Positions 10,067-27,164 of a stretch of 64,000 bases of DNA are shown here, in pieces. Every line of letters starts with the position of its first letter. The first letter of the stretch is position 1. Source of the stretch: an uncultured Thermodesulfobacteriota bacterium (GTDB taxonomy: Bacteria > Desulfobacterota > B13-G15); the NCBI GenBank assembly GCA_964543765.1, contig CAZIZI010000005.1, positions 6,121-70,120 of the forward strand, in the 5' to 3' direction. The notes beneath the pieces are model-generated. The model did not search any database, was not told the DNA's origin, and saw only the letters and a list, made by a program, of their open reading frames with translations. Position numbers and translations under genes: made by a program.

Positions 10067-11334
10067 GATATTTCCTCTGTGATTTTCACGTTCATAGCTC
10101 CTTCAGTCGGGCCACAAGCCCTGAGATGAACCTAGAAGGTCTTGTTCGGTGGGGAAAGATTAAGGGTTTGAGTATTGTGGGAACGGGTGATTTTACCCAT
10201 CCTTCTTATTTTGCGGAGATTAAGGAAAAGCTTGAGGAAAGCGAACCAGGGATTTATCGTCTTAAAAAGGGAGAACGGTCGGTTGGGCTTATAATTACCG
10301 GAGAGGTTTGCAATATCTTTGATCAAGGTCCTAAGAAAAATCGCCGGGTTCACACTTTAATTTTCGTCCCCAATATTGAGACTGCTGAAAAGATAAATAA
10401 ACTTCTTTCCCATTACGGGGATCTTTCTCAGGACGGAAGGCCCACGTTCACCTTTCCGGTTAAGGACTTGGTGAAGATGGTGCTTGATTGTTCTGAGGAT
10501 TGTCTTATTGTTCCTGCTCATGCCTGGACTCCCTGGTTTTCGGTTTTTGGGGCCAATTCGGGGTTTGATTCGTTGGAAGAATGTTTTGAAGAAGAGGCGA
10601 AATACGTTTATGCCATTGAGACCGGGCTTTCCTCAAACCCTCAGATGAACTGGCGCATTTCAAATCTGGATAGAATTTCCATAATCTCCAACTCCGATGC
10701 CCATTCGCCAAGACATGTAGCTCGGGAGGCTACTGCCTTTTGTTGTGAGCTTTCCTATTACGAGATAGTTAGGGCGATAAAGGAAAAGGATCCGAAAGGG
10801 CTTGCCTTCACGGTCGAGTTTTTCCCTGAAGAAGGCAAATACCATTACGATGGTCATAGGATTTGTGGGGTTTTGTTCTCTCCCAAGGAGACAAAGGCTC
10901 ACAATTACTTATGCCCCAAATGCGGCAAACCTTTAACCGTTGGGGTTATGCACCGAGTGGAGGAGTTGGCCGATAGACCCGAGGGCTTCATTCCACCTGG
11001 GGCCATCCCTGCTATACATATCATTCCTCTTGAGGAGATAATCGCCGAAGCCTTAGGCGTTGGGAAGGGTTCTAAAGCCGTTGATCGGGAGTATTTCCGG
11101 TTGATAGAACAAGGAGAATCGGAATTTAAGGTCCTTCTTGAGCTTCCTCCTGAGGAGCTTCGAAGGATTGCGCCTCCAAAAATATATGAGGGGATCCTCC
11201 GAGTCCGTAAGGGTGAACTTGAGATTGTTCCGGGGTTCGATGGGGTTTATGGTAAAATAAAAATCTTTCCGGATTCTCGGGATGAGACTCCCAGGGACGA
11301 AAAGGTCCCAGAAACCCAGATGAAGCTTTTCTGA
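10063..11334 (+). CDS. endonuclease Q family protein (PHP domain plus Zn ribbon)
   Basis: DFHVHSSFSRA, GTGD, HTLIFVP, PAHAWTPW, NSDAHSP, CPKCGKP and C-terminal VPGFDGVYGKIKI follow the EndoQ motif order as I remember it. ATGA start/stop overlap with rarA. Confidence 0.7.
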   Translation: MRYFLCDFHVHSSFSRATSPEMNLEGLVRWGKIKGLSIVGTGDFTHPSYFAEIKEKLEESEPGIYRLKKGERSVGLIITGEVCNIFDQGPKKNRRVHTLIFVPNIETAEKINKLLSHYGDLSQDGRPTFTFPVKDLVKMVLDCSEDCLIVPAHAWTPWFSVFGANSGFDSLEECFEEEAKYVYAIETGLSSNPQMNWRISNLDRISIISNSDAHSPRHVAREATAFCCELSYYEIVRAIKEKDPKGLAFTVEFFPEEGKYHYDGHRICGVLFSPKETKAHNYLCPKCGKPLTVGVMHRVEELADRPEGFIPPGAIPAIHIIPLEEIIAEALGVGKGSKAVDREYFRLIEQGESEFKVLLELPPEELRRIAPPKIYEGILRVRKGELEIVPGFDGVYGKIKIFPDSRDETPRDEKVPETQMKLF

Positions 11335-12767
11335 TGCCCCAGCTCTCGGAAGAATTCTTGGTTTTTTTGGAAGACCTTTTGGGTGAGGAAAAGGGGGCCT
11401 TTCTTTCCACAATAGGCCTTAAATCACCTCCGTTTTTCAGAATAAATACCCTGAGGACCGATGACGAAAAGGCCTTAAAGCTTTTGGAGGAAGAGGGTTT
11501 TAAAGCCCTTCCTTTAGATGGCCTTCCTCATGCCTATTCGGTCTTAGAGGAACCATTTCCTTTGGGATGTAGCTTTTCCCACTACCTGGGTAACATTTAC
11601 CTTCAAGACCCAAGCTCCATGGTTCCTCCTTTGGTGCTTGAACCAAAAGAAGGGGAGCTTGTTGTTGATGTGGCTTCGGCTCCGGGGTCAAAAACCACCC
11701 AAATGGCCTCTCTTATGGGGAATAAGGGACTTATTCTGGCCAATGAGGTATCGGTTAAGCGATCCAAATCCCTTTCCTACAATTTGATGAAGCTCGGGGT
11801 GATAAATGCGGTAGTAACCCTTCTTGATGGGAATCGTTTGGGGAAGCTTTACTTTGAGACGTTTGATAAGGTGCTCTTGGATCCTCCTTGTAGTGCTCTG
11901 GGAACGCTTAAGACCTCAGTTGAACCCTTAAAATGGTGGAAGATGAAGCGATCGGAAAAGCTCTCCCATTTACAATGGAACCTTCTTGTAAGCGCCATTA
12001 AAGCCTTAAAACCGGGTGGGATTCTGGTTTATTCCACCTGTACGATTGTCCCCTTAGAAAACGAGGCCCTGATCTCACGAGCGGTAAAAGAATACGGGCT
12101 TGAGATCGAGGAGATAAGATGGAATGCCTTCAAGGCAAGAGCTGGTCTTAAGGAGTTTAGAGGTGAAAGATTCGTAGAGGGGATAGAACGCACAATAAGG
12201 ATTTATCAACATGAAGTACCAGGTGAAGGCTTTTTTATCGCCAAATTAAGAAAAGTCCGAGAAAATAAACCTCCTAAAGAACGACCCCCGTTGGAACCTT
12301 TGCCATTAGTTGACAGATGGGACAATAGGGTAAAGAGCTTTTTGGATGTTCTTACCGATCACTTTGGCCTCTCTCAGGATCTCTTTGAAGGGTTTTTGTT
12401 TGAAAGGGCTAAGGAACTTCGCATCTATCCCCTTGAGGCCAAAAACATGTCTTTTTATAAGTACAGTCATCGAGGCCTTCCTCTGGTTAAATTAGAGGGA
12501 AGCTTTCCCATTTTAACTACCTGGGGAGCCCAATTTTTAAGCAAATGGGCCACCAAAAACGTGATCGACCTAAAGGATCCTAAGGAGTTGCTCTTCTTTT
12601 TGAAACATAAACCCATTCCCCTTGAACCAAACCGGAAAGGTCAACAGATAGTGCTTTATAAAGGGCATCCAGTGGGATATGGGATAGCCTCCGGTGGTTA
12701 TTTAAAAAGCCGAGCCAAAGCCAGAAAGGAAGTCAGATGGCCTTTTTGCCTTTTTCCTCCTCCTTAA
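11334..12767 (+). CDS. NOL1/NOP2/Sun-family RNA m5C methyltransferase (RsmF-like, with C-terminal extension)
   Basis: DVASAPGSKTTQ (motif I), LLDPPCSALG (motif IV) and YSTCTIVPLENE. 1-nt TGATG overlap with the preceding gene. Confidence 0.75.
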   Translation: MPQLSEEFLVFLEDLLGEEKGAFLSTIGLKSPPFFRINTLRTDDEKALKLLEEEGFKALPLDGLPHAYSVLEEPFPLGCSFSHYLGNIYLQDPSSMVPPLVLEPKEGELVVDVASAPGSKTTQMASLMGNKGLILANEVSVKRSKSLSYNLMKLGVINAVVTLLDGNRLGKLYFETFDKVLLDPPCSALGTLKTSVEPLKWWKMKRSEKLSHLQWNLLVSAIKALKPGGILVYSTCTIVPLENEALISRAVKEYGLEIEEIRWNAFKARAGLKEFRGERFVEGIERTIRIYQHEVPGEGFFIAKLRKVRENKPPKERPPLEPLPLVDRWDNRVKSFLDVLTDHFGLSQDLFEGFLFERAKELRIYPLEAKNMSFYKYSHRGLPLVKLEGSFPILTTWGAQFLSKWATKNVIDLKDPKELLFFLKHKPIPLEPNRKGQQIVLYKGHPVGYGIASGGYLKSRAKARKEVRWPFCLFPPP

Positions 12768-12805: not shown

Positions 12806-14827
12806 ATGGTGCGGTTGAAGGGGCTAGTGCTTCCTTTTTTAGCCTTTTTGATCCTTTTCTCCTTAAGACTTTATCAAGCCAATTTTATCTTCAAGGAAAA
12901 AGAGTTTTATTTTTGGGGCAAAAACATTCCCCTGCTTTCTTCTTCTGACGGTTATTACTTTTTGCGCCTTGCCCATCTTTTTAAAGAAGGTTCCTATAAA
13001 GGGAAAGCACCTGATCCCTTGAGGAATGCCCCTGATAATCAACTTAACCCTGATTCCGAAAGGGCCGTGAGGTTTCCCTCGATTCCTCCTCTTATTTCGG
13101 TTCTTTTGGCCTTTTTGTCTTATTTGACGGGGGTTTCTCCCGAGAGGGTTTTTGTGGTTTTTCCATTAATCCCCTTTTTGGGCTCTCTTTTAGCCTTTCC
13201 GCTTTATGGAATAGGGAAGAGGCTTTGGGGAGAGCTATGTGGTTTTGGTATGGCTTTAGGGGGTGGGTTATGTCTTGAGTACGTCATAAGGACCGACCTT
13301 TTGAGGATCGATACTGAAGCAATAGCTTTGGTGTTTTTCTTTGCGGTTATTTATTCCATGTTTTTGCTCCTTGAGGATTTCAATCTGAAAAACCTGATCT
13401 TGTTTAGCATTTTCGTTCATCTTTACCAGTGGTGGTACAGCCACCCAGGTTTACTCTTACCCCTTTTGGTGGCTTACGGTTTGACCTTTTTTTTGGTCGA
13501 AAAATTATCCCTTAAGGAATCGGCAAAAAGAACGCTTATTTTAGCCCTTTTTTCAAATCCCTTAATACTTTTCAACGGGATTTTTAACCTTTTGCAGATG
13601 ATAAGTGGCTATATACCTGGGCTTTTGCCCGAACAATTGGGCTTTATACCTCGTTCGGTTTTTGCTCGCTCAGTAAGCGAACTGCAAAGGCTTCCCATTA
13701 AGGTCGTTCTTTCCATGGTTTCAAGTCATTATGTGATTGGCTTCTTAGGTCTTTTTGGCTTTTTGGTTATTTTTCTTAAAACCAGAAGGCCCCTTTTGAT
13801 CTCCCCTCTTTTTATACTTGGCCTAATGAGCCTTTTTGGAGCGAGGCGTTTTATGATATGGCTTGGCCCCTTTGTAGGGCTTGGCCTTGGGGTTTTGCTT
13901 CAATATTGCTTTGAGGTCTTAAAGGGAAGGTTAAAATTTAATCCCGTACTCATAAAGGTGGCTTTATTGATCTTATTGCTTCTTTCAAGCGTTTCCCCTA
14001 AAAGTCTGACTTTTGTTCCCCTTTGCCCCTACGGGAGGCCCCTTTTGGAAGGAATAAAGGAGCTCGAAAGGATAACTCCGGAAGGAAGTTTCGTATGGTC
14101 CTGGTGGGATTACGGTTATGTTATCTCCCTTGTAGCCAAAAGGCCCGTTTATCATGATGGAGGAAGTTGGGGAGGGCCAAAGAGCATTCTTGTGGCAAGG
14201 TCATTGGCCTTAGATGATCCCGAAAAAGCCTATAACATCATTAACGGCACCACCTCCCTTGGAGAAGAGGGGATAAGGGAGCTTCTTGAAAAGGGGGAAA
14301 GTCCTTCTTCCATAATAAGCCAGATAGAGAACGGGCTTTACAATAAGGAGTTGAAAAGTAAGATTTACCTTCTTTTAACGGGTGATGACATAAGTAAATT
14401 TTTTTGGATCTCCTTTTTTGGAACTTGGGATCCCGAAAGGGAAAAGGCAGAACACCTTTTTTACTTTCCCCTTGGTTTATGCAAGATGAATGAGGAAAGG
14501 ATAAGGTGTCAAAATGGGATTTTTGAGCTTAAAAAAGGGATCTTACAATTAAGGGGAGGGGACGTTATAAAGGTAGGAAGGGTCAAGATGGTTGAACTAG
14601 ATGATAGGGATTTTCCTCAAAAAAGGGAAAACCTGAAAGAAGGGGATGGTTTTTTCCTTATTTTAGTGAAAAAGAAAGACCATCTTTTTGGATGGGTGGC
14701 TCATCCCAAGGTCCAAAGCACCATGTTTCAAAGGCTTTTCTTTGAGGAGGGTGAAGTCGGAAACTTCAAGCTCGTTTTTTCAAATTTCCCTTATCTTCGA
14801 GTTTTTGAGGTAACTGAAAGAAGATGA
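12806..14827 (+). CDS. oligosaccharyltransferase, PglB/STT3 family (N-glycosylation catalytic subunit)
   Basis: About 13 TM helices. SSDGYYFLRLA in the first external loop resembles PglB NDGYAFAEGARD. WWDYGY lies at 14102-14119, followed by HDGGSWGGPKS...SLALDDPEKA, which aligns to PglB VDGGKHLGKD...SLSKDEQAA. Confidence 0.75.
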   Translation: MVRLKGLVLPFLAFLILFSLRLYQANFIFKEKEFYFWGKNIPLLSSSDGYYFLRLAHLFKEGSYKGKAPDPLRNAPDNQLNPDSERAVRFPSIPPLISVLLAFLSYLTGVSPERVFVVFPLIPFLGSLLAFPLYGIGKRLWGELCGFGMALGGGLCLEYVIRTDLLRIDTEAIALVFFFAVIYSMFLLLEDFNLKNLILFSIFVHLYQWWYSHPGLLLPLLVAYGLTFFLVEKLSLKESAKRTLILALFSNPLILFNGIFNLLQMISGYIPGLLPEQLGFIPRSVFARSVSELQRLPIKVVLSMVSSHYVIGFLGLFGFLVIFLKTRRPLLISPLFILGLMSLFGARRFMIWLGPFVGLGLGVLLQYCFEVLKGRLKFNPVLIKVALLILLLLSSVSPKSLTFVPLCPYGRPLLEGIKELERITPEGSFVWSWWDYGYVISLVAKRPVYHDGGSWGGPKSILVARSLALDDPEKAYNIINGTTSLGEEGIRELLEKGESPSSIISQIENGLYNKELKSKIYLLLTGDDISKFFWISFFGTWDPEREKAEHLFYFPLGLCKMNEERIRCQNGIFELKKGILQLRGGDVIKVGRVKMVELDDRDFPQKRENLKEGDGFFLILVKKKDHLFGWVAHPKVQSTMFQRLFFEEGEVGNFKLVFSNFPYLRVFEVTERR

Positions 14828-15396
14828 GGGGTCTTTTAATAATTTTCTTAAGTGTTCTTTTTCTTTTCCCTTCTTTGGGCCTTTCACTTGAGGGAAAGGT
14901 CATAGAGGTTTTTGATGGTGATACCATATTGGTTTTAATTGATGGGCAAGAGGTAAAAGTGAGGCTTTATTGTATAGATGCCCCTGAGCTTTTACAACCC
15001 TATGGGAGAACTGCCAAGGATTTCTTATCGAGACTCCTTTTGGAGAAAAACGTTAAGGTAAAAGAGAGAGGAACTGACCAGTATGGGCGGGTTTTGGGAG
15101 AGGTATTTCTTGATGGGGAGATCTCGGTAAATGAGGAGCTCGTAAAAAGCGGGATGGCCTGGGTTTACAGAAAATACTGTAAGATCCCTTCCTATTTTAC
15201 CCTCGAAAAAACGGCAAGGGAAAATAGAGTTGGCTTATGGGAAGATGAAAGCCCCATTCCCCCCTGGGAATACCGTAAAAAAGAAAGGGAGAGAGGAATT
15301 GAGCTGGGGAATACGTATTTTCTTTTAGTCCTTTTACTTTTAGTGCTTTTTCTAAGCCTCAGTTGGAGAAGAAAAGGAAGAAGGAGAAAAAATTAG
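14824..15396 (+). CDS. SNase-like thermonuclease, secreted with a C-terminal membrane anchor
   Basis: VFDGDTILV...VRLYCIDAPE is the staphylococcal nuclease motif. N-terminal signal peptide; C-terminal hydrophobic segment plus RRKGRRRKN tail. ATGA overlap with the OST gene. Confidence 0.75.
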   Translation: MRGLLIIFLSVLFLFPSLGLSLEGKVIEVFDGDTILVLIDGQEVKVRLYCIDAPELLQPYGRTAKDFLSRLLLEKNVKVKERGTDQYGRVLGEVFLDGEISVNEELVKSGMAWVYRKYCKIPSYFTLEKTARENRVGLWEDESPIPPWEYRKKERERGIELGNTYFLLVLLLLVLFLSLSWRRKGRRRKN

Positions 15397-15397
15397 C

Positions 15398-15426
15398 TTG
15401 ACAAACACCTTTTTATGGCATTAAAT
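15398..15426 (+). promoter_or_regulatory. sigma70-like promoter (TTGACA, 17-nt spacer, TTAAAT) for the pilin genes
   Basis: -35 at 15398-15403 and -10 at 15421-15426. AAGGAGGTGGAGG RBS before ATG 15511. Confidence 0.45.
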
Positions 15427-15510
15427 GTATTAGATGAAACAAAGGGATTCTCCAGAAGTTTGAATTGAGTTAAAATTTTTAAAATTTTAAACCTTTAAAG
15501 GAGGTGGAGG

Positions 15511-16008
15511 ATGGAAGTTTTAAGTGTTTTAAAGAAAAGGGTGAAGGCGAAAAAGGGTTTCACGCTGATTGAGTTGATGATCGTTGTTGCCATTTTGGGC
15601 ATTTTGGCCGCCATAGCTATTCCCACCTATATGGATTATACGAAAAGGGCGAAGGTAAGTGAGGCAATAAGCTTGCTTTCGGGAATGGCGAATGCCATAG
15701 CGGAGTATCATACTTCATATGGAAGTATGCCAACTAGCATAGACGATATTGGAGGAGGAAAAACAAGTAGATATGTGACCAGTATGACGTGGGGAGGAAG
15801 AGAGACATACGGCAACAACACTTATTGTTCCATAAATGCAACCCTTGGCAACATTGGAACAGGAGTTGATAGTAAGACGCTTACCCTTTATGTGATTTAT
15901 AGGGCAAATAATGAGACTTATGATAAATGTTGGGAATGGAGCATTGAGGATAAATACGTTCCTACAAGCGTTCGAGAAAAGAGATTTAATACTCCTAACT
16001 GTCCATGA
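15511..16008 (+). CDS. type IV pilin (prepilin with class III signal)
   Basis: KKG|[22 protein letters not shown] has Gly-1, Phe+1 and Glu+5. Three N-x-S/T sequons lie in the C-terminal globular part. Confidence 0.85.
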
Positions 16009-16036
16009 TCTTAAAACTTCTTTCTTAAAATAACCC

Positions 16037-16070
16037 AAGGCCTGGGGCCTTTTGGTTCCAGGCCTTTTAA
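16037..16070 (+). terminator. intrinsic terminator-like hairpin between the two pilin genes
   Basis: AAGGCCTGG (16037-45) pairs with CCAGGCCTT (16058-66). TTTTAAAA follows and abuts ATG 16072. Confidence 0.45.
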
Positions 16071-16071
16071 A

Positions 16072-16509
16072 ATGAAGATGAAGAAGGGTTTGACTTTACT
16101 TGAAGTGATGATTGTGGTTGCCATAATTGGGATTTTGGCAGCGATTGCCATTCCTTCCTATACTAAGTATGTGAAAAGGGCAAAAAGAGCTGAAGCTTTT
16201 AATGCCTTAATGACCATTCATGCGGCTCAAGAGATGTATAAGGCAGAACATGGAGTTTATACCGATAATTGGTCAAAACTTCCTGGGTGTTCCCCGAATA
16301 TGGCCAAGGAGTATACGATTTACCTTAATTTTAGTGATGGCAATTACACCGCCACTGCGGTTCCCTATGGAAGACAAGCAGGGGACTACTGTTTTAGGAT
16401 TTCTTATAACGGAAGTAAGGAGTGTGCCGTTCATTTTCCCACGGGAAACTGTACAGGTGTTCAATGTTGCCAATCTTTCCAAGAGTGTTCCTGGGAAACC
16501 CTTCGTTAA
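16072..16509 (+). CDS. type IV pilin-like protein, Cys-rich, with 4 N-glycosylation sequons
   Basis: MKMKKG|[22 protein letters not shown] (Leu+1, Glu+5). Sequons are NFS, DGNYT, NGS and NCT; 9 Cys in the C-terminal 80 aa. No SD sequence is evident. Confidence 0.75.
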   Translation: MKMKKGLTLLEVMIVVAIIGILAAIAIPSYTKYVKRAKRAEAFNALMTIHAAQEMYKAEHGVYTDNWSKLPGCSPNMAKEYTIYLNFSDGNYTATAVPYGRQAGDYCFRISYNGSKECAVHFPTGNCTGVQCCQSFQECSWETLR

Positions 16510-16529: not shown

Positions 16530-16572
16530 AGGTGCTAACCTTACTTTAGGCTTTTTAAAAAAGAGGTGAGAA

Positions 16573-17907
16573 ATGGTCTTAAGAAATGGTTACCAGGAAA
16601 GGGTGAGAAGGATCTATCGCTTTATAAGCGAAAACTTTTACCTTAATCGACCTGATCTTGAGGTCAAGGGGGAAAAGTATAACTCGGCCCTTCTTTTTGG
16701 GATCTTAACAGCCCTTTATGGTGGAAAGGAGCTTATAATAGGGGAACCGGGTCTTGGTAAGACCACCTCGGCCGAATACATAAGTTGTCTCATTTACGGT
16801 ATACCCCTTGGCGTCATATGGGGAAGCGAGGTCTCGGGGCATCCCGAACAGACTGAAGAAAAGATCGTGGGAAGGCCAGATCTGGGAGCCCTAAACCAGG
16901 GAAAAGAGGTTGTTGTTTGGAGTAATTTTGTTCAGCTTCCGGTTAAAATCGTCGATGAGATAAATAGGCTCCCCGAAACCAAACAATCGATGATTCTTGA
17001 TGGAGTTGATAGGGGTAATTGGGAGTACCTTAACGAGATGATCATAAATGACGAATACGCCCTTTTTGCCACCGCCAACTATCAAGATCGAGGCACTAAC
17101 ACCATAATAGCGCCTTTAGTGGATAGGTTTGACGTGATGGTCGAATCAAGGCATCCAGGGCCCAATCTGGCCTTTTACATAGGAAGAAGATCAAGGTTTG
17201 ATAATCCTTTAAGACACCAGGAGTTTGAGGAAAGGTATCACAAGCTTTTAAGATCTCAGATCCCCTATAAGGAGAAGCTTCAAGGTCTTGAGGAACTTTC
17301 CGAGGTTTTTAGGGATTACCTGAAGGAGAAGGTGGGAATCGAGAGTCTGAGCAAAGAGGAGCGTTTTTCCATAAGGAAAGAGATGGCCCAAATGCCCCTT
17401 GACCTTGATGCCAATGCCTTTCTAAGGATGGTTCTTGCGGAACTTTCCTTCTGTCACCGTTATGGTCAGAAGAGAAGTGTTGAAGGATGCCCCGAGGGGT
17501 GCCATTATACGGGTTATCTCTGTTATCACGTTAAAAACTGCGCCTCAAACAGGCTTCCCATCTCGGTTATAGGGTATTCTCAAGCCTTGGCTTGGTTCCT
17601 TGAGGACGATGAGGTGGACCTTGAGCATGTAAGGACGGTTCTTCCTTTTACTTTGGCTCATAGAATCCAATGGCGCGACTCCTATATATCCAAAAAGGAA
17701 GGGGAGGGGAGAAATGATCCCCTTCAGATCTATCTGGCCAAAGAGGCTACCGAGGAGATCTTCCATCGTTATACTGAACAAAGGGATTATCTTCTTGATG
17801 CTTTGGCTATTGCCTCAAGGGCCTTTGAGGGAGAGGCGGTTGAACCCCTTGATGGGGATCATCCGATTTATGAGGAGATAAAAAAGGAGATAGCGAGTTT
17901 AAGATGA
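16573..17907 (+). CDS. MoxR-like AAA+ ATPase with a Cys/His-rich insertion
   Basis: GEPGLGKTT Walker A; KIVDEINRLPETKQSMILDGV Walker B/sensor as in the MoxR DEINRAxPxTQSALLEAM; ATANYQD...LVDRFD. CHRYG...CPEGCHYTGYLCYHVKNC at 17452-17541. Confidence 0.7.
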   Translation: MVLRNGYQERVRRIYRFISENFYLNRPDLEVKGEKYNSALLFGILTALYGGKELIIGEPGLGKTTSAEYISCLIYGIPLGVIWGSEVSGHPEQTEEKIVGRPDLGALNQGKEVVVWSNFVQLPVKIVDEINRLPETKQSMILDGVDRGNWEYLNEMIINDEYALFATANYQDRGTNTIIAPLVDRFDVMVESRHPGPNLAFYIGRRSRFDNPLRHQEFEERYHKLLRSQIPYKEKLQGLEELSEVFRDYLKEKVGIESLSKEERFSIRKEMAQMPLDLDANAFLRMVLAELSFCHRYGQKRSVEGCPEGCHYTGYLCYHVKNCASNRLPISVIGYSQALAWFLEDDEVDLEHVRTVLPFTLAHRIQWRDSYISKKEGEGRNDPLQIYLAKEATEEIFHRYTEQRDYLLDALAIASRAFEGEAVEPLDGDHPIYEEIKKEIASLR

Positions 17908-18608
17908 AGAATCCGTTTGAAGAGTTTCGCGGGCAGAGTACAAGGTCAAAGGGGAAAGAACTCCCCTTAGATAGGATCCTCAAAGCCAAAGAGGAGACCC
18001 TTAATCAAATCCTCAAAGGATACGAGAACCTTTTGAAAAACGAGGCAAAGGATCTGGTTTGGCTTATGCAATATAGTACGGTTATTAAGGCCTATAGCAT
18101 AGCGGAAGAGGCCATAAAGGGCATAAATTATGCGGCTGAGGACGTCGAGGAGTTTTGTTATGTGCTGGATAAGACCGATCAGGTCCCCTATTTGATCACT
18201 GGACCGGCAGGGGTTTATATCTCGGCCCTTTGCAATAACGCTCAAGAGGAGGAGATCGTTTTAAGGCTTCAGGATGTGGGTATAAAGATAAACCTTCTTG
18301 GTTACCGACTTCCCGAAGGAAAGAGGCTTATCATTGAAGGGAATGTAGGGGATTTTACGGGGATAAGCCTTGAAGGAGGTGAGCTTATAATTGAGGGAAG
18401 CGCCAAAAATTACACCGGGGCAGGGATGAAAAAGGGCAGGATCATAGTCAAGCAGAACGTGGGCTTTAACACGGGCCACGGGATGACCGGCGGTGAGATC
18501 CTTGTGGGTGGCCGGATCAAGGGGCTTGGAAAGGTGGTTGGAGGGAAGATTTACGAGAAAGGGCAGTTGATCTTTCCAAGCGATGACTATCGGCCATATT
18601 ATTTTTAA
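17904..18608 (+). CDS. GXGXG-motif beta-helix domain protein (glutamate synthase domain-3 / FwdC-like), unknown N-terminal domain
   Basis: C-terminal GNVGDFTGISLEGGELIIEGSAKNYTGAGMKKGRIIVKQNVGFNTGHGMTGGEILVGG shows repeated GxxGxxG. ATGA overlap with the ATPase gene. Confidence 0.6.
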   Translation: MKNPFEEFRGQSTRSKGKELPLDRILKAKEETLNQILKGYENLLKNEAKDLVWLMQYSTVIKAYSIAEEAIKGINYAAEDVEEFCYVLDKTDQVPYLITGPAGVYISALCNNAQEEEIVLRLQDVGIKINLLGYRLPEGKRLIIEGNVGDFTGISLEGGELIIEGSAKNYTGAGMKKGRIIVKQNVGFNTGHGMTGGEILVGGRIKGLGKVVGGKIYEKGQLIFPSDDYRPYYF

Positions 18609-18620
18609 ATTTAAAGAAGC

Positions 18621-20177
18621 ATGTTCGAGGAATTTTTGAGAAAGGTCTGGCCTAAGGTAAGGCGTAATCATTTATTTCCTCAGATACCTCCACCCCAACT
18701 TGTGGAATCCGATGAAGAGGTGGCTTTGGAGATTAAAAGCAAACAGATGACGATCAATGTGAATTACCTTCAAGTTTTGACCGAAAAGATGAACCCCGAG
18801 GATGCTTTGCAGGCCCTTCTTGATCACGGGATATCCCATTACATGTATTGTCCGTGGGACTTTAACACCCATCTGATGCTTTATTCCGAAGCAAAAAAGG
18901 TCTTGAGGGATAAAAGGCTTGCCCAAAAGGCCGCTTCCTACTTTATGGATGTAGTGGCCAATACCTATTGTGTGAAAGAACGTGAGACCAAGATCCCCGA
19001 GCTTTATAGGCATCTGCCGAAGGAAGGGATCCAGAGGATTTTAGCCCTCCTTTATCAGGTGATATGGGGTATAGACTTAGGAGCTCAAGGGGAAGAGGAG
19101 AGCATAAAAAGGCTTTCGCGGATCCCTTATCTGGAAAAGCGACTGTGGAAGGAGAGCATCAAGAAGTTTGCCAAAACGTTGGAGGAGTTTCTCCAGAAAG
19201 AGATGGAGAGCGAGCAAAAAAGCTCTAAAAAAGCCCAAAACCCTTTGGGTGAGCATTCCATTGAAAACTATACGCTTGAAGAAATCGATAAGGGGTTAAG
19301 GGACTTCGCCAGTTCTGTGGATGATATAACGGAGTTTAGGGAAACAGTTGAGGACTTAAAGGATGAGCTTGCGGCGATGGGTTATACCGTAGGGGGTATG
19401 GGGCGAGGGGCAGGTAATCCTATAGATGCGGATCTTCTTTATTACATGAAGCTTGCCGAGAATTACACGCTTCCCATTAAGAAACTGCCCATGGAGAAAA
19501 GCGGGGCCCTTCACCCTCATTCGCATTCTCCGTGGGAAGTAGGGAAGCCCGTTCAGGACATAGATCCCTGGACTAGCTTCGGTAAGATAATGCCCGGTTT
19601 AACTCAGACGTGGGTGAGACGCGAAGGCGAAGTCTTCGGCGAGATGGAGAAGATCCCGGATTGTCTTATAATCATAGATTCCTCGGGAAGCATGACCAAT
19701 CCTCGCGAAAGGCTTTCTTATGCGGTTTTGGGTGCGGCCTGTGCCTGTAACGCTTACCTGAAAAACGGCAAGAAGGTGGCGGTTTATAACTTCTCGGATG
19801 CCTTCAGGGGCAATAAGCTGATCCTTGATTTCTGTAAGGAAAAAGAGTCGATTTATTGGGCCATATGTAGATACTTTGGCGGAGGCACGGCCATTGATCT
19901 TAACGATGTGATGTATCTACTTAAGCAGGCGGAGAAACCCGATATCTTCATCATCACCGATATGCAGATAACCAATTTGGAAAAGCTGATCGACTTCTTT
20001 AACTCCATTGAAAATAGGGTCACAGCCGTTCACATAGGAGAGAACATTTACGCCACGAGATTCCGAGAAGGGTTAAAGCAGAAGAATAACGTCTCCCTTT
20101 TCTTGGTGAAGGATAAGGAGGATATCCCCAAGATAGTGCTGGGAAAAGTAAGAGAATATTTCACCTCCCCTTTTTAA
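18621..20177 (+). CDS. von Willebrand factor A (VWA) domain protein with a MIDAS motif; N-terminal 330 aa uncharacterised
   Basis: CLIIIDSSGSMTNP (DxSxS at 19677-19691) followed by a typical VWA fold. No signal peptide. Confidence 0.65.
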   Translation: MFEEFLRKVWPKVRRNHLFPQIPPPQLVESDEEVALEIKSKQMTINVNYLQVLTEKMNPEDALQALLDHGISHYMYCPWDFNTHLMLYSEAKKVLRDKRLAQKAASYFMDVVANTYCVKERETKIPELYRHLPKEGIQRILALLYQVIWGIDLGAQGEEESIKRLSRIPYLEKRLWKESIKKFAKTLEEFLQKEMESEQKSSKKAQNPLGEHSIENYTLEEIDKGLRDFASSVDDITEFRETVEDLKDELAAMGYTVGGMGRGAGNPIDADLLYYMKLAENYTLPIKKLPMEKSGALHPHSHSPWEVGKPVQDIDPWTSFGKIMPGLTQTWVRREGEVFGEMEKIPDCLIIIDSSGSMTNPRERLSYAVLGAACACNAYLKNGKKVAVYNFSDAFRGNKLILDFCKEKESIYWAICRYFGGGTAIDLNDVMYLLKQAEKPDIFIITDMQITNLEKLIDFFNSIENRVTAVHIGENIYATRFREGLKQKNNVSLFLVKDKEDIPKIVLGKVREYFTSPF

Positions 20178-20190
20178 ATCCCTTCAAAAG

Positions 20191-20219
20191 TTGACACCCA
20201 TCTGGATGAAGCTTATTTT
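20191..20219 (+). promoter_or_regulatory. sigma70-like promoter upstream of lon (TTGACA, 17-nt spacer, TATTTT)
   Basis: -35 at 20191-20196. GAGGTGGAGGGAG RBS before ATG 20257. Confidence 0.35.
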
Positions 20220-20256: not shown

Positions 20257-22614
20257 ATGCTGTTTATACCACGGGAAAAGCGGGAGAAGAGAAATATTCC
20301 GAAGTTTCTGCCCATACTTCCTCTGAGGGGAGCTGTGCTTTTTCCAGAACTGGTCCTGCCCATCATGGTAGGGCGTAAAAAGTCCATTAAGCTCATCGAC
20401 GATGCCATGGAGGGCGAAAGGATCATCGGGGTTTTAACCCAATATAACCCCGAAGACGAGGATCCAAATCCCCAAGAGCTTTATCAGGTAGGGGTGGCCG
20501 CTCACCTCTTAAGGGTGGTGAAGGAGTTGGATGGGACCCAAAGGGTCATAGTCCAAGGGCTTGAGAGGATTAGAGCGAAAAGGTTCCTTCAATCGGATCC
20601 TTACTTTGTGGCTGAAGTGGAAGTCTTGGAGGTTCCTCCTTATGTGAGTGGTTCCGACTTAGAGGTCGAAGCCTTGGTGAGGACCATAAGGTCGCTTTTC
20701 CAAAAGGCAGTAGAACTTGCTTCTTATCTGACCAATGAGCTCAAAAATGCGGTGATGAGCATCCGGGATCCCAATGTGGTGGCTGACTTAATTGCGGCCA
20801 ATTTAAATATAAAGGTCCAAGAGAAACAAGAGGTCCTTGAGACGGTTGACCTGAAGGAAAGGCTAAAAAAAGTTCACTTCCTTTTGGCCAGGGAGGTTCA
20901 GATCCTTGAGCTCGGCAATAAGATCCAATCCCAAGTGAAGGAAGACATAGACAGGGCCCAAAGGGAATACTACCTGAGGGAACAGCTGAAGGCCATAAAA
21001 AGGGAGCTTGGGGAGCTTGATGATCACGCCCAGGAGATAAAGCAGTTGAGGGAAAAAATAGAAGCAGCCCAGATGCCCGAAGAGGCTCGCAAGGCCGCCG
21101 AGAAAGAACTCGAAAGGCTTTCCAAGATGCCCCCCGCCTCAGCCGAATATACGGTGGCAAGGACCTATCTGGATTGGTTGATAGAACTTCCTTGGTCAAA
21201 GTCAACGGAAGATAACCTAGACATAGCTCATGCAAGACAGGTCCTTGATGAGGATCATTATGATCTTGAAAAGGTCAAGAAAAGGATCCTCGAGTACTTA
21301 GCCGTTAGGAAGCTAAAAAACGACATGAAAGGCCCTATACTTTGCTTCGTCGGCCCTCCGGGGGTGGGGAAAACCTCGTTGGGCAAATCCATCGCTAGGG
21401 CAATGGGAAGGAAATTCGTGAGGATTTCGCTTGGTGGCATTCGGGATGAAGCCGAGATAAGGGGTCATCGAAGGACTTATGTAGGGGCTTTGCCTGGTAA
21501 GATAATCCAAGGGATAAAACGAGCAGGGGTTAATAATCCTGTATTTATGCTCGATGAGGTGGACAAGATCGGCATAGACTTCCGAGGGGACCCGGCGGCT
21601 GCGCTTCTGGAGGTTTTAGATCCCGAACAGAACCACGCCTTCAGCGACCATTATATCGATGTTCCCTTTGACCTTTCTAAGGTGCTTTTCATAGCCACTG
21701 CCAATGTGCTTGATACGGTACCTCCTGCCCTTAGGGATCGAATGGAGGTTCTGGAGTTACCGGGTTATACGGACGATGAGAAACTTATGATAGCCAAAAA
21801 CCACCTTATTCCTCGTCAGCTCCAAGAGCATGGGTTAACCGAAGAGGATTTGGAGTTTGAGGACGATGCCATTATCACCATCATTAACTCCTATACTCGA
21901 GAAGCAGGCGTAAGGAACCTGGAAAGGGAGATAGCGGCCATATGTCGTCAGGTGGCAAAGGAAGTTGCCGAAGGTAAAAGGGAAAAGGTGATTGTAAGGA
22001 AGGATAATGTCTACAAATTCCTTGGGCCGGAGAAATTTTATCCTGAAGTGGCCGAAAGGATTACCACCCCAGGTATCGCTACCGGCTTAGCTTGGACCCC
22101 TACCGGTGGAGACATCATCTTTATCGAGGCCACCAGGATGAAAGGCAGAAAAGGCCTGATCCTCACCGGACACCTTGGGGAGGTGATGAAGGAATCGGCT
22201 CAAGCGGCTTTGAGCTATGTGCGGTCTAAGGCTAGGGACTTCGGCATACCCGAGGACTTTTTCTCCAAAAGCGATATCCACATACATGTCCCAGCCGGGG
22301 CTATTCCGAAAGACGGACCTTCGGCCGGGATCGCCATCTTCGTGGCCTTGGTTTCCCTTTTGACCAACAGACCCGTAAAAAGCGATGTGGCAATGACCGG
22401 AGAGATTACCTTGAGGGGACAGGTTCTACCTGTGGGAGGCATAAAGGAGAAGGTATTGGCTGGGAAAAGGGCGGGTATAAAGACCATCATCCTTCCGAAA
22501 CGCAATGAGAAAGACGTGGAGGAACTCCCCGATCACGTGAAACAGGGCTTAAAGTTTCACTTCATCCAAAGGGCGGAGGAAGCTTTGGATGTGGCGCTGG
22601 TGAAGGAGGAGTAA
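20257..22614 (+). CDS. lon: ATP-dependent protease La (Lon)
   Basis: LON N-terminal domain, GPPGVGKTSLGKSIA Walker A and proteolytic DGPSAGIA serine motif. 785 aa. Confidence 0.95.
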   Translation: MLFIPREKREKRNIPKFLPILPLRGAVLFPELVLPIMVGRKKSIKLIDDAMEGERIIGVLTQYNPEDEDPNPQELYQVGVAAHLLRVVKELDGTQRVIVQGLERIRAKRFLQSDPYFVAEVEVLEVPPYVSGSDLEVEALVRTIRSLFQKAVELASYLTNELKNAVMSIRDPNVVADLIAANLNIKVQEKQEVLETVDLKERLKKVHFLLAREVQILELGNKIQSQVKEDIDRAQREYYLREQLKAIKRELGELDDHAQEIKQLREKIEAAQMPEEARKAAEKELERLSKMPPASAEYTVARTYLDWLIELPWSKSTEDNLDIAHARQVLDEDHYDLEKVKKRILEYLAVRKLKNDMKGPILCFVGPPGVGKTSLGKSIARAMGRKFVRISLGGIRDEAEIRGHRRTYVGALPGKIIQGIKRAGVNNPVFMLDEVDKIGIDFRGDPAAALLEVLDPEQNHAFSDHYIDVPFDLSKVLFIATANVLDTVPPALRDRMEVLELPGYTDDEKLMIAKNHLIPRQLQEHGLTEEDLEFEDDAIITIINSYTREAGVRNLEREIAAICRQVAKEVAEGKREKVIVRKDNVYKFLGPEKFYPEVAERITTPGIATGLAWTPTGGDIIFIEATRMKGRKGLILTGHLGEVMKESAQAALSYVRSKARDFGIPEDFFSKSDIHIHVPAGAIPKDGPSAGIAIFVALVSLLTNRPVKSDVAMTGEITLRGQVLPVGGIKEKVLAGKRAGIKTIILPKRNEKDVEELPDHVKQGLKFHFIQRAEEALDVALVKEE

Positions 22615-23807
22615 TGAGGGTTTTGCTTTTCGCTGGGAAAGGAGGAGTTGGTAAGACCAGTATCGCTGCCTCTACCGGTCTTCTGGCCGCAGAGCGCGGA
22701 TATAAGACCATTGTAGTATCCCTGGATACGGCCCATAATCTTTCGGATGTCTTTGAAGTGGGAGAAAACCTCTTTGATGTTAAGGGGGAACCGGTTGAGA
22801 TTTTTCCCAATCTATGGATTCAGGAGATCAACATCCAGGAGGAGATAAGGCGCCATTGGAAAGAGGTTCACGGCTATATTACCGCTCTATTCAGGGCTTC
22901 GGGGGTAAAGGAGATACTGGCCGAGGAGCTTGCGGTTTTGCCGGGCATGGAGGAGGTGAGCGGGCTTCTTTATCTTAACACCTACGCCAAGAAGGGAAGT
23001 TTCGACGTGGTGATTCTTGATTGTGCTCCTACTGGTGAGGCCATAAGGTTTGTGAGTTTACCCACCATCTTCGAGTGGTATATGAAGAAGTTCTTTAACC
23101 TCGAAAGAAAGATCGCTAAAGTTATAGGGCCTTTTGTGGAAAAGTTTTACAATGTCCCCATGCCTGAAGAGAGTTGTTTTGATGCGGTAGAGGAACTCTT
23201 CATGAGGCTCGATGGGGTTGAGAAGCTTTTAAACGATGCGCGGATAACTTCCGTTAGGCTTGTCACCAATCCTGAAAAAATCGTGGTGAAGGAGACCCAA
23301 AGGGCCTTTCTTTACTTCACGCTCTATGGGTTATGTGTGGACGGTGTGGTGGTCAACAAGGTGTTTCCCAAGGAACTGGAGGGTGAGTTTATAAAGGGGT
23401 GGCAGCTCCTTCAGGATAGATACCTGGAGGAGATAGAGACCTACTTTGCCCCTCTTCCGGTCTTTAAGGTTCCCCTTTACGAGGATGAGGTGAGTGGGAT
23501 TGAACGCTTAAAGAGGCTCGGGAAAGACCTTTACGGGGAGAATGACCCGATTCAAGTCTTCCGAAGTGAATCTCCCTTCAATTTCTACAAGGAGGATGGA
23601 CTTTATAAACTTTCGTTGAAAATGCCCTTTGTCACCCGGGATAAGATTCATCTGAGTAAAAGAGGGGACGAGCTCATAATCGAAGTGGGTGTGTTCAAGA
23701 GACACGTGATACTCCCCAAAACGATAGCCTCTTTAAGCCCTCGTAAGGCAAGATTCGAAGGCGATAATTTGGTCATTTCCTTTGAGGAGGGCGAAAATGC
23801 AATATAA
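22614..23807 (+). CDS. ArsA/GET3-family ATPase with a C-terminal Hsp20/CS-like domain
   Basis: AGKGGVGKTS P-loop and DTAHNLSDVF GET3/ArsA signature. C-terminal beta-rich region resembles alpha-crystallin/CS. TAATG overlap with lon. Confidence 0.7.
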   Translation: MRVLLFAGKGGVGKTSIAASTGLLAAERGYKTIVVSLDTAHNLSDVFEVGENLFDVKGEPVEIFPNLWIQEINIQEEIRRHWKEVHGYITALFRASGVKEILAEELAVLPGMEEVSGLLYLNTYAKKGSFDVVILDCAPTGEAIRFVSLPTIFEWYMKKFFNLERKIAKVIGPFVEKFYNVPMPEESCFDAVEELFMRLDGVEKLLNDARITSVRLVTNPEKIVVKETQRAFLYFTLYGLCVDGVVVNKVFPKELEGEFIKGWQLLQDRYLEEIETYFAPLPVFKVPLYEDEVSGIERLKRLGKDLYGENDPIQVFRSESPFNFYKEDGLYKLSLKMPFVTRDKIHLSKRGDELIIEVGVFKRHVILPKTIASLSPRKARFEGDNLVISFEEGENAI

Positions 23808-25736: not shown

Positions 25737-27164
25737 ATGGAAATTTTAGAGAAGATAAAGGATTATGCCTATCGGAAGGCCATTGAGCAGATCGTTTCGC
25801 TTTTGAGGAAGGTGGATGACCAGAAGATTTTGCAGATGCTTTCCATAGCCAAGATGTTAACCGGGGATCCTGAAGTAAAAAGAGCTATAGAGGGTATAAA
25901 AAAGTTTATTCAAAGCGATCATCCGGCCAAGCAGCTTATTTATCGCATAGTTAACTATCTCTCTTATGAAAACTGCGTGAAAATCTTTTGGACCCTTTTT
26001 AACAACGGTTGGTTTATAGGGGGTAAGAAGAGGGATGCCTTTGAGAAGGAGAACGGCTTCAGGCCTCCTTTTGTTCTTATCTTGAGCCCTACTATGAGGT
26101 GCAATCTGCGTTGTAAGGGTTGTTACACGCTCGGTTATGGCCGCCAGTATGAGCTTGAGTACGAACTGGTGGATAGGATCCTTCGGGAGTGTGAGGACTT
26201 AGGCATTTACTTTGTTACGATCCTTGGAGGAGAGCCCCTTTTGTATCCGCATTTGTTCAGAATGATGGAAGAACATTCAGACATATTTTTCCAGGTTTAT
26301 ACCAATGGGACCTTGGTTAACAAAGAGGTTGCCAAGAGGTTTTCCGAGCTTGGAAACGTGCTTGTGGTGATAAGTGTTGAAGGTGATGAAGAAGAGACGG
26401 ACAGTTGGCGAGGAAAGGGCGTTTACAAGAGGATCCTTCAGGCTTTTGATCACTTGAGGGATGAGAGGGTTCTAATCGGAACTTCTTCGACGGTGACGCG
26501 TTATAATGTGGAGAAGGTCTCCTCTTTCGAATGGGTTGATCAAATGATCGAGCTTGGGTCTTTCTTGCAGAATTATTTCCTATATATTCCCGTTAACGGG
26601 AAAGCTGATTTTAACCTTATGGTCACTCCTGAACAAAGGGATCTTTTGCGAAGAAGGGTGATTGCCATAAGGAACACGAGGCCGATTTTTATCATGGATT
26701 TCTGGAACGATGGTCCGTATGTTGGAGGGTGTATAGCTGCGGGTAGACGTTATTTTCACATTAATGCCAAAGGAGACGTTGAACCGTGTGTTTATACCCA
26801 TATTGCAGTAGATAACATCTGTAACACCACTATAGCTCAGGCTTTAAACAGCAAATTGTTCCGCGCCATAAGGGCAAGACAGCCTCATAATCCCAATCAT
26901 CTTAGGCCTTGTATGATCATAGATAACCCCCACATTTTGCGGGAGATCATAAAGGAAACTAGCCCTTATTTCACCCATCCAGGGGCGGAGGAGATTTATA
27001 CCGAAAAGGCACAGCTTATGGATGAGTATGCGGCCCAATGGGGTAAATATGCGGATAATATATGGGCTACTGAGTATAAGGATGGTAAGCGTATAGTCGA
27101 TTATCTGCCTGAAGGAGAAAACGTTCGTCCCTCTTTTTGTGCCCAAGTTGGCGCTATTCAGTGA
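25737..27164 (+). CDS. radical SAM protein with a C-terminal SPASM/twitch-like auxiliary cluster domain and an N-terminal helical extension of about 100 aa
   Basis: TMRCNLRCKGCY (CxxxCxxC); C-terminal GGCIAAGRRYFHINAKGDVEPC...C...C. Confidence 0.7.
   Translation: MEILEKIKDYAYRKAIEQIVSLLRKVDDQKILQMLSIAKMLTGDPEVKRAIEGIKKFIQSDHPAKQLIYRIVNYLSYENCVKIFWTLFNNGWFIGGKKRDAFEKENGFRPPFVLILSPTMRCNLRCKGCYTLGYGRQYELEYELVDRILRECEDLGIYFVTILGGEPLLYPHLFRMMEEHSDIFFQVYTNGTLVNKEVAKRFSELGNVLVVISVEGDEEETDSWRGKGVYKRILQAFDHLRDERVLIGTSSTVTRYNVEKVSSFEWVDQMIELGSFLQNYFLYIPVNGKADFNLMVTPEQRDLLRRRVIAIRNTRPIFIMDFWNDGPYVGGCIAAGRRYFHINAKGDVEPCVYTHIAVDNICNTTIAQALNSKLFRAIRARQPHNPNHLRPCMIIDNPHILREIIKETSPYFTHPGAEEIYTEKAQLMDEYAAQWGKYADNIWATEYKDGKRIVDYLPEGENVRPSFCAQVGAIQ

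Follow-up and report, generated by a model that had tools for sequence, protein, structure and literature searches.

The window analysed here, a stretch of 64,000 nucleotides from contig CAZIZI010000005.1 of an uncultured Thermodesulfobacteriota bacterium (assembly GCA_964543765.1), contains three adjacent genes encoding a MoxR-like AAA+ ATPase, a β-helix protein of the GXGXG superfamily and a protein with a von Willebrand factor A (VWA) domain and a metal ion-dependent adhesion site (MIDAS). This triad has been inherited as an indivisible unit across changing gene neighbourhoods, and the co-conservation of its members is far beyond chance. The reading we favour, in which our confidence is about evenly balanced, is that the three products form a single ATP-powered machine for remodelling, cytoplasmic and housekeeping, that belongs to the MoxR-AAA+/VWA type and includes a further dedicated subunit. 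New features of this system are the obligatory third subunit, the N-terminal domain of the VWA partner and the cysteine cluster in the lid of the ATPase, whereas the logic of motor and MIDAS site is already familiar.

The triad consists of three co-directional open reading frames (ORFs) on the forward strand, which according to the ORF calls encode 444, 234 and 518 amino acids, and it is present in one copy in the window. The gene for the ATPase, a divergent protein of the MoxR/chelatase type (16573–17907; assigned from its ORF, Pfam, a profile search against the PDB and its orthologues), is preceded by a strong Shine-Dalgarno sequence, GAGGTGA, at 16563–16569. Its TGA stop codon (17905–17907) overlaps the ATG start codon (17904–17906) of the β-helix gene in an ATGA at 17904–17907, and a GGAG is found at 17886–17889, 15 nt 5' of this overlap. 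The β-helix gene (17904–18608; ORF, Pfam, NCBIfam, PDB and structural model) ends with TAA at 18606–18608 and is separated by a 12-nt spacer, ATTTAAAGAAGC (18609–18620), from the gene of the VWA partner (18621–20177; ORF, Pfam and model), which starts with ATG at 18621. Direct reading of these junctions confirmed the three ORFs, the overlap and the short gap described in an earlier sequence-only reading of this DNA, and the triad genes are translationally coupled. A promoter and terminator scan gave no convincing terminator inside the triad block and one promoter-like TTGACA-17-TATTTT at 20191–20219, between the VWA gene and lon. Because promoter- and terminator-like sites were no commoner in the scan than in shuffled sequence, the boundaries of the operon are drawn from spacing only. 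Hydrophobic segments of the kind found in transmembrane regions or signal peptides are absent from all three proteins, and the system is therefore taken to be cytoplasmic.

The conservation of the triad was analysed in genomes and metagenomes, and all of its carriers are uncultured. In a set of 28 species-representative loci from metagenome-assembled genomes (MAGs) of uncultured Thermodesulfobacteriota, 'Deltaproteobacteria' and Syntrophobacterales, 28/28 were consistent with the triad in the same order, with gaps only at contig ends. A metagenome scan seeded with the alignment of the VWA partner gave 80 loci, and wherever the contig had room the neighbouring genes were present (the AAA+ gene in 65/65 and the β-helix gene in 72/72). 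Thus, the conservation of gene neighbourhood on which the sequence-only reading had staked its proposal was found in both sets. Triads whose proteins share only 40–65% identity with those of the window carry wholly different flanks (L029–31, L034/35). The loci nearest to that of the window belong to Guaymas-labelled MAGs and to metagenome contigs of the subsurface/sediment type. When flanking ORFs were clustered across 117 loci, the triad genes were seen in 114, 96 and 92 of them, the next commonest neighbour being lon (38 loci, one clade), and the genes after lon were again clade-specific, including by eye a small secreted protein, a PilZ-like protein, Gmk and YicC. No universal fourth gene recurs among the flanks of the 117 loci, and a client would therefore be unlinked to the triad. 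The position of the triad after pilin genes and before lon, which had been considered notable, lost this significance: lon follows the triad in one clade only (38/117 loci) and pilins are nearby only in some loci. A functional link to pilins or lon was rejected, since this synteny is clade-specific.

Selection on the triad was estimated against locus L018, whose proteins are 97–99% identical; relatives at 80–86% identity were unusable as dS was saturated. The dN/dS values were 0.032 for the β-helix protein and 0.027 for the VWA protein, compared with 0.023 for lon, 0.024 for arsA and 0.083 for kdsB. At greater distances the dN of the triad is intermediate between that of lon, on one side, and those of arsA and kdsB, on the other. 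Purifying selection on the triad is thus as strong as on lon.

The ATPase retains intact motifs and narrowly exceeds two Pfam cutoffs, so that its earlier description as MoxR-like holds with marginal scores. It matches AAA_5 with 24.2 bits (cutoff 22) and AAA_lid_2 with 26.4 bits (cutoff 22.7), but reaches only 15.6 bits against AAA_3, the MoxR-proper model (cutoff 27); its orthologues score 26–31 bits against MoxR-type models. With the single sequence the best solved relative was ChlI (PDB 8osf, E 0.21), and the weak NCBIfam matches include cobaltochelatase/BchI lid regions. A profile of the orthologues searched against the PDB had as its top match 2r44, at an E-value of only 0.046; this entry is titled as an uncharacterised protein and is one which we take to be a MoxR structure from Cytophaga. 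In the profile alignment, the DEINR..QS..ATAN..DRF series and the sensor-2 region of the triad ATPase are in register with DEVNR..ATQN..DRF and GASTRA of 2r44. The designation MoxR-like, which is based on these motif patterns together with marginal scores, thus describes a probable divergent member of the MoxR/chelatase type. Seven MoxR subfamilies have been described (MRP, APE0892, RavA, CGN, APE2220, PA2707 and YehL; PMC3893208), and the low scores against all solved MoxR structures suggest that the triad ATPase falls outside them or at their edge.

Orthologues of the ATPase are 58–95% identical and present in every locus with room, where the VWA gene lies two genes further downstream, and in their alignment Walker A, Walker B, sensor 1, the arginine finger and sensor 2 are all present and invariant. 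In the window these correspond to GEPGLGKT (residues 57–64, 16741–16764), the MoxR-typical DEINR (residues 128–132, 16954–16968), ATAN (residues 166–169), DRF (residues 184–186) and a sensor-2-like SNR (residues 325–327), which precedes the AAA_lid_2 segment found by Pfam (residues 329–367, 17557–17673). Between Walker A and Walker B lies the stretch GHPEQTEEKIVGRP (residues 89–102, 16837–16878), absolutely invariant from G89 to P102. By its position, and by analogy with the role of the helix-2 insert in NorQ, these 14 residues may represent the helix-2 insert and pore region of MoxR proteins. The lid contains an insertion with a Cys/His cluster, C294-x11-C306-x3-C310-H311-x5-C317-x5-C323 (17452–17541), whose five cysteines and H311 are invariant in orthologues down to 58% identity and are kept in the fusion protein P0251 described below. 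This cluster could be a zinc site, an iron-sulphur site or a redox switch; for NorQ, a disulphide at the ATP site has recently been shown to confer redox regulation (PMC13036017).

The middle protein of the triad belongs to the GXGXG β-helix superfamily as a divergent member and is not an orthologue of FwdC or of glutamate synthase (GltS). The GXGXG assignment made from sequence was right, although weak in terms of sequence scores: the protein remains below the Pfam cutoff for PF01493 (26.0 bits, E 7.5e-6, cutoff 32.5), but it is matched by the NCBIfam FwdC models (E 3e-12) and by six solved FwdC/FhcC chains (E 3.5e-12 to 1e-6), and its structural model is a β-helix with GltS and FwdC among its matches. 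Some orthologues (P0093, P0101 and P0392) have a precomputed PF01493 match. Hence both points that had been named as decisive for the earlier proposal, a GXGXG match of the middle ORF and co-conservation elsewhere, turned out in its favour. The literal G-x-G-x-G string is absent from the protein, which shares with FwdC/FhcC and the C-terminal domain of glutamate synthase a right-handed β-helix and the glycine-rich coil repeats of about 20 residues. In the AlphaFold model (pLDDT 83.7), a flexible N-terminus is followed by a four-helix domain (residues 21–111, 17964–18236) and by the right-handed β-helix (residues 117–224, 18252–18575, pLDDT >90), for which the top structural matches are GltS 1ofd and FwdC 5t61; its C-terminal strand is GKIYEKGQLIFP. 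In contrast to FwdC, the window protein has the additional four-helix domain, an N-terminal peptide and AAA+ and VWA partners. An identity as FwdC was rejected, as its 46 bits are far below the equivalog cutoffs of 130.65 and 340, and no fwd or glt genes were found in the flanks within the window or among the recurrent neighbours. JGI names some homologues 'formylmethanofuran dehydrogenase subunit C' or 'glutamate synthase domain 3', labels that are over-annotations.

The N-terminal peptide of the β-helix protein, MKNPFEEF (17904–17927), is conserved and predicted to be flexible, with a pLDDT of about 50 for residues 1–20. In the close family N3, P4, F5 and F8 are invariant, and in relatives at 25–45% identity F5 is still invariant and F8 is kept in at least 90%. 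Being flexible and acidic, the NPFEEF peptide is a candidate docking element, which may bind to the pore or serve as an acidic ligand of the MIDAS site.

The place of the β-helix protein in the system is indicated by a gene fusion. A profile search of 1.8 billion cluster representatives gave 57 clusters at E<=1e-30, among them that of the fusion protein P0251, whose N-terminal half corresponds to the C-terminal half of the ATPase and whose C-terminal half corresponds to the β-helix protein. In the contig that encodes P0251, L042, the ATPase frame is open from the contig edge and continues via '...GDHPVYEEIRRDIEEGIGWVNLFEDF...' into the β-helix protein with neither a stop nor a start codon at the junction, and the VWA gene follows 82 nt downstream. 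This Rosetta-stone arrangement argues that the β-helix protein is a subunit located on the C-terminal (lid) side of the ATPase.

The main alternative, though a rather unlikely one, is that the β-helix protein is the substrate or product of the ATPase and the VWA protein, which would recognise its N-terminal tag and assemble, disassemble or deliver it, for example as an end-to-end stacked polymer or scaffold. The flexible and invariant N-terminal peptide has the look of such a recognition tag, and distant archaeal relatives add to the case. In the DPANN locus L038, a VWA homologue (E 4e-24), cut by the contig end, directly precedes 12 β-helix paralogues, and arrays of 13–22 paralogues were found in other archaeal MAGs. 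The arrays are co-directional with overlapping stops and starts (L036 1–14996, L038 1084–10367 and L039 1–14696), and the DPANN-type MAGs that bear them include an Altiarchaeota MAG and 'Ca. ainarchaeum'. The copies of an array share an array-specific N-terminal peptide, such as MTGTKVVKLKLEGGG..LPKLK or MAGALAKRE..PALAMAKGFKGYKPEEE, and a C-terminal GKIYHKGxLI strand resembling GKIYEKGQLIFP of the window protein, while the middle varies. Three proteins of 493–542 amino acids (P0254, P0257 and P0259) contain the whole module of helical domain and β-helix in tandem duplicate, each half beginning with a KPEEEK-type peptide as in the L038 array. Arrays of this size are striking and unexplained for genomes so small.

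Against a role as substrate, the lineage of the window has exactly one β-helix copy in a 1:1:1 gene order, covalent fusion to the C-terminus of the ATPase would be unusual for a substrate, the surface of the β-helix protein is conserved throughout with a dN below that of the VWA partner, and many further paralogue clusters in archaea lie away from any AAA+ or VWA gene. Because of the 1:1:1 arrangement, the fusion and the conservation of the whole surface, a subunit is favoured over a substrate in the lineage of the window. The choice between client and adaptor, which the sequence-only reading had left open, can be narrowed towards an adaptor or integral subunit by the fusion and the lon-like constraint.

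It had also been thought conceivable that the triad belongs to the MoxR-vWA ternary type of conflict or anti-phage system, in which case the β-helix protein would be a sensor or effector. Indeed, MoxR, vWA and a third component make up the architecture of ternary conflict systems (Kaur et al. 2020), and the archaeal arrays look diversifying. The array in L039 is broken by a two-gene insert (10613–12080), the first gene of which has no family match on record, whereas the second matches Pfam AbiEii, an abortive-infection toxin family. The described ternary systems have a VMAP or iSTAND third component, variable C-terminal effectors on the vWA protein and a high architectural turnover (PMC7159879). 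In contrast, the third component of the triad is a β-helix, its vWA domain is itself C-terminal, and no effector domains and no VMAP or iSTAND component were found in the triad. Ternary systems are mobile and diversifying, and their defining trait of architectural variability is missing from the triad, which is vertically inherited, highly constrained and of constant architecture in >100 loci, uniformly present across its clade with strict synteny and present as a single copy within the conserved synteny of the core genome (lon, kdsB and others). A PADLOC search gave no match for the three proteins, and no relatives of the VWA protein were found in 72,556 plasmids or 50,697 phage records. With these negative results, a dN/dS of about 0.03, equal to that of lon, and no variable effectors, a defence role in the lineage of the window is unlikely, and we give this explanation very little credence.

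The VWA partner matches VWA_2 with 27.0 bits, exactly at the cutoff, and its model shows a VWA domain at the C-terminus (residues 348–515, 19662–20165) with a complete MIDAS. The MIDAS is formed by DSSGS (residues 353–357, 19677–19691), T423 and D447, which are invariant even in the archaeal homologue, and the recognition of this ORF as a VWA (MIDAS) protein was therefore correct. In a fold search the nearest relatives of this VWA fold were Rpn10 and the VWA domain of NorD. The bacterial VWA domain is minimal, with about 170 amino acids and no long insertion. As no insertion of this kind can be seen, the NorD-type contact of a finger with the pore may differ or be absent from the triad. The linker that precedes the VWA domain (residues 258–344, 19392–19652) is modelled with low confidence and contains many invariant residues (P299, H302, W305, D315, W317, S319, G321, K322, P325 and W331); this conserved disordered segment could substitute for the finger. 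The linker sequence 'HPHSH' was rejected as a general His-rich metal motif, since only H302 is kept in distant members.

The N-terminal domain of the VWA partner (residues 1–255, 18621–19385) is modelled with a pLDDT of about 90 as mostly helical with three short strands. It had no PDB match by sequence or profile search, and neither this domain nor the linker had a Pfam or NCBIfam family match among 33 diverse members (28 + 5). The domain contains the conserved motif H69-x3-H73-x3-C77-P-W-D80-x3-H84 (18825–18872), in which H69, H73, C77, P78 and W79 are invariant down to 39% identity and D80 and H84 are near-invariant. This His/Cys/Asp motif is a candidate metal site and may bind metal. Together with the lid cysteines of the ATPase, it suggests, at the level of motifs, that the system also handles metals or exerts redox control.

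These motifs also bear on two enzymatic explanations. One holds that the triad is a class-I-chelatase-like enzyme inserting metal into a small cofactor, with the ATPase as ChlI/CobS, the VWA protein as ChlD/CobT and the β-helix protein as a miniature substrate-binding subunit. Like the class I chelatases, the triad combines an AAA+ protein carrying an AAA_lid_2-type lid, which is common to chelatases, with a C-terminal VWA/MIDAS partner and a third subunit; the ATPase has its weak matches to ChlI and to the cobaltochelatase/BchI lids, the order of N-domain, acidic linker and C-terminal VWA resembles ChlD/CobT, and His/Cys motifs are present. However, the DEINR motif and the 2r44 profile match point to MoxR over ChlI, and the N-domain of the VWA protein is not AAA-like, having no Pfam match and being predicted mostly helical. 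A CobN/ChlH-type subunit is present neither in the triad nor in its recurrent flanks, the middle gene encoding instead a β-helix protein of 234 amino acids, and no tetrapyrrole or cofactor biosynthesis genes recur nearby. We regard a chelatase as very improbable.

The other explanation, the least probable of those weighed here, is an ATP-dependent regulatory protease or processing system with a functional link to the adjacent lon, in which the N-domain of the VWA protein is a zincin-like metallopeptidase (HxxxH...E) acting on the β-helix protein or a client. The order of its elements, short strands followed by a helix with H69-x3-H73 and then by a helix with H84/E90, resembles the layout of zincins, MoxR genes often lie beside 'putative metallopeptidase + VWA-like' proteins, and lon is downstream of the triad in 38 loci. 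Yet the catalytic Glu of HExxH is replaced by an invariant Gly (G70), no peptidase family was matched in the 33 members even at E<=5, and fold searches gave only VWA matches; the adjacency of lon is clade-specific and a promoter-like site precedes lon.

The remodelling machine that we favour would work as follows. LARA is the target-binding module of RavA, C-terminal to its AAA+ core, a position that is taken by the β-helix protein in the L042 fusion. In FwdABCD, FhcABCD and GltS, the GXGXG β-helix is a rigid, non-catalytic scaffold packed on catalytic subunits. By analogy with NorQ/NorD, CbbQ/CbbO and RavA/ViaA, the ATPase would form a hexamer with the invariant loop of residues 89–102 lining its pore, and the VWA protein would engage this ring, its MIDAS site and N-domain acting as two grips. 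The β-helix protein would be a stably bound adaptor on the C-terminal lid side of the ATPase, playing the part of the LARA domain, and its rigid β-helix would bind the actual client in the way in which this fold binds catalytic subunits in FwdABCD and glutamate synthase. The flexible NPFEEF peptide would likely dock to the ring or to the MIDAS site, and the client would be encoded elsewhere. The task performed on it would most likely be enzyme maturation or metal-centre loading, because of the conserved His, Cys and Asp residues in the N-domain of the VWA protein and of the five cysteines inserted into the ATPase lid; this is the least secure step of the proposal.

Such a mechanism has precedents, as MoxR ATPases are maturation chaperones for specific complexes (PMC3893208). 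Among MoxR/VWA pairs, the mechanism is best characterised for NorQ/NorD. NorD consists of an N-domain, a linker and a VWA domain, the last of which inserts a finger into the NorQ pore and contacts the helix-2 inserts; as rotation powered by ATP extends the linker, the client is held by the N-domain and the MIDAS site (PMC13036017). The VWA protein of the triad has this same layout. However, NorQ-NorD and CbbQ-CbbO, activases of the CGN subfamily, are two-component systems encoded beside their clients (nor, cbb), whereas the triad has a third, obligatory subunit and no linked client; its VWA protein is without an obvious finger insertion, and its ATPase exceeds theirs by about 170 residues and has neither NorQ nor CbbQ among its sequence matches at E<=1. 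The triad also resembles RavA-ViaA of E. coli, a cytoplasmic and chaperone-like pair in which a MoxR-type AAA+ protein adjoins a soluble VWA/MIDAS partner and the clients are encoded elsewhere (PMC3893208). It differs in that the target-binding module is a separate GXGXG protein and not a LARA domain, in the five-Cys lid insertion of the ATPase and in the unrelated N-domain of the VWA partner, and no significant sequence similarity to RavA or ViaA was detected. As the sequence-only reading had supposed, the triad appears to be undescribed: no paper joining GXGXG with MoxR, AAA+ or VWA was found in searchable full text, and the terms 'beta-helix', 'helix repeat', 'glutamate synthase' and 'GXGXG' are absent from Kaur et al. 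2020 (PMC7159879), the main survey of ternary systems with MoxR and vWA. No NCBIfam model covers the triad families, which in databases are named 'hypothetical', generic 'VWA domain-containing protein' or, by mis-transfer, FwdC/GltB3.

Several observations weigh against the proposed machine. The MoxR assignment of the ATPase is marginal by score, the bacterial VWA domain shows no insertion resembling a finger, and metal binding is deduced purely from motifs, with a single His of 'HPHSH' left in distant members. Physical interaction is derived from gene order and from one fusion on a single 3-kb contig. No client emerges from any of the 117 neighbourhoods. In two lineages (L032/33 and L037) the β-helix and VWA genes occur without an adjacent AAA+ gene, so that the system may sometimes do without the ATPase or have it encoded in trans. 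As these lineages keep only the GXGXG-VWA pair, the tightest pairing in the system is that of the β-helix and VWA proteins. Finally, a DPANN VWA protein followed by 12 β-helix paralogues fits many substrates better than one adaptor. Among the two-gene variants, the β-helix and VWA genes of L032 (8001–11056) are followed by a metallophosphoesterase and an acetyltransferase gene, and the β-helix gene of L037 (6979–9521, high GC) seems to be without the N-terminal peptide and overlaps a Pyr_redox_2 ORF.

Directly upstream of the triad, the window contains four co-directional genes (12806–16509). They encode an oligosaccharyltransferase of the STT3/PglB type with a WWDYG motif (12806–14827), a secreted staphylococcal-nuclease homologue (14824–15396) whose gene overlaps the former by 4 nt, a type IV pilin (15511–16008) and a minor pilin of the ComP_DUS type, a DNA-uptake-receptor family (16072–16509). 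L003, L043 and L046 likewise have the oligosaccharyltransferase and both pilins upstream, and the nuclease was detected in L043 only. The combination of oligosaccharyltransferase, nuclease and DNA-binding pilins suggests glycosylated competence or DNA-scavenging pili. Downstream of the triad (20257–23807), lon (end 22614) overlaps by one base the gene of an ArsA/Get3-type ATPase with a C-terminal HSP20-like domain (start 22614). This adjacency is kept in the closer relatives L001, L003–L006 and L028, and lon and arsA could be a proteostasis pair. Two adjacent ORFs of about 475 amino acids (25737–27164 and 27137–28570) are located downstream of a divergent IclR-type regulator. The first has a CxxxCxxC motif (MRCNLRCKGCY) typical of radical SAM enzymes, and its homologues have the same relative position in L001 and L014. 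The MAG of L014 (CP070817.1, 1,094,362 bp, labelled 'chromosome') keeps the triad beside lon; if this genome is indeed complete and reduced, the fact that it has kept the triad would speak for a housekeeping role of importance.

Among bacterial chaperone systems, pairs of MoxR-AAA+ and VWA proteins belong to the most widespread and the least understood, and their known clients are few (NOR, Rubisco, CO dehydrogenase and LdcI/Nuo/Frd). In the triad, a β-helix fold so far known only as a passive scaffold in FwdABCD/FhcABCD and glutamate synthase appears in a new context. The triad can be seen as a natural 'split RavA', in which the target-binding part is separate and occasionally fused. It also provides a link to the unexplained β-helix paralogue arrays of DPANN archaea. 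A wider proposal, unlikely as it stands, is that tag-bearing GXGXG proteins are handled by a class of ATP-driven machines that has gone unrecognised and is widespread in uncultured lineages, and that the triad represents its single-copy form in bacteria. In these machines a VWA protein, usually with a MoxR-like motor, would recognise the N-terminal peptide and then load, assemble or exchange the tagged protein, and the class would have expanded in DPANN archaea to a VWA protein with arrays of at least 12 interchangeable paralogues. If this were true, it would imply a modular β-helical intracellular structure or a diversified recognition repertoire without a described counterpart. All three triad proteins are soluble and of modest size, which makes reconstitution and cryo-electron microscopy feasible. 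Strictly conserved, single-copy and under strong constraint across a large set of uncultured Thermodesulfobacteriota and other bacteria, the triad probably serves a core process in these anaerobes.

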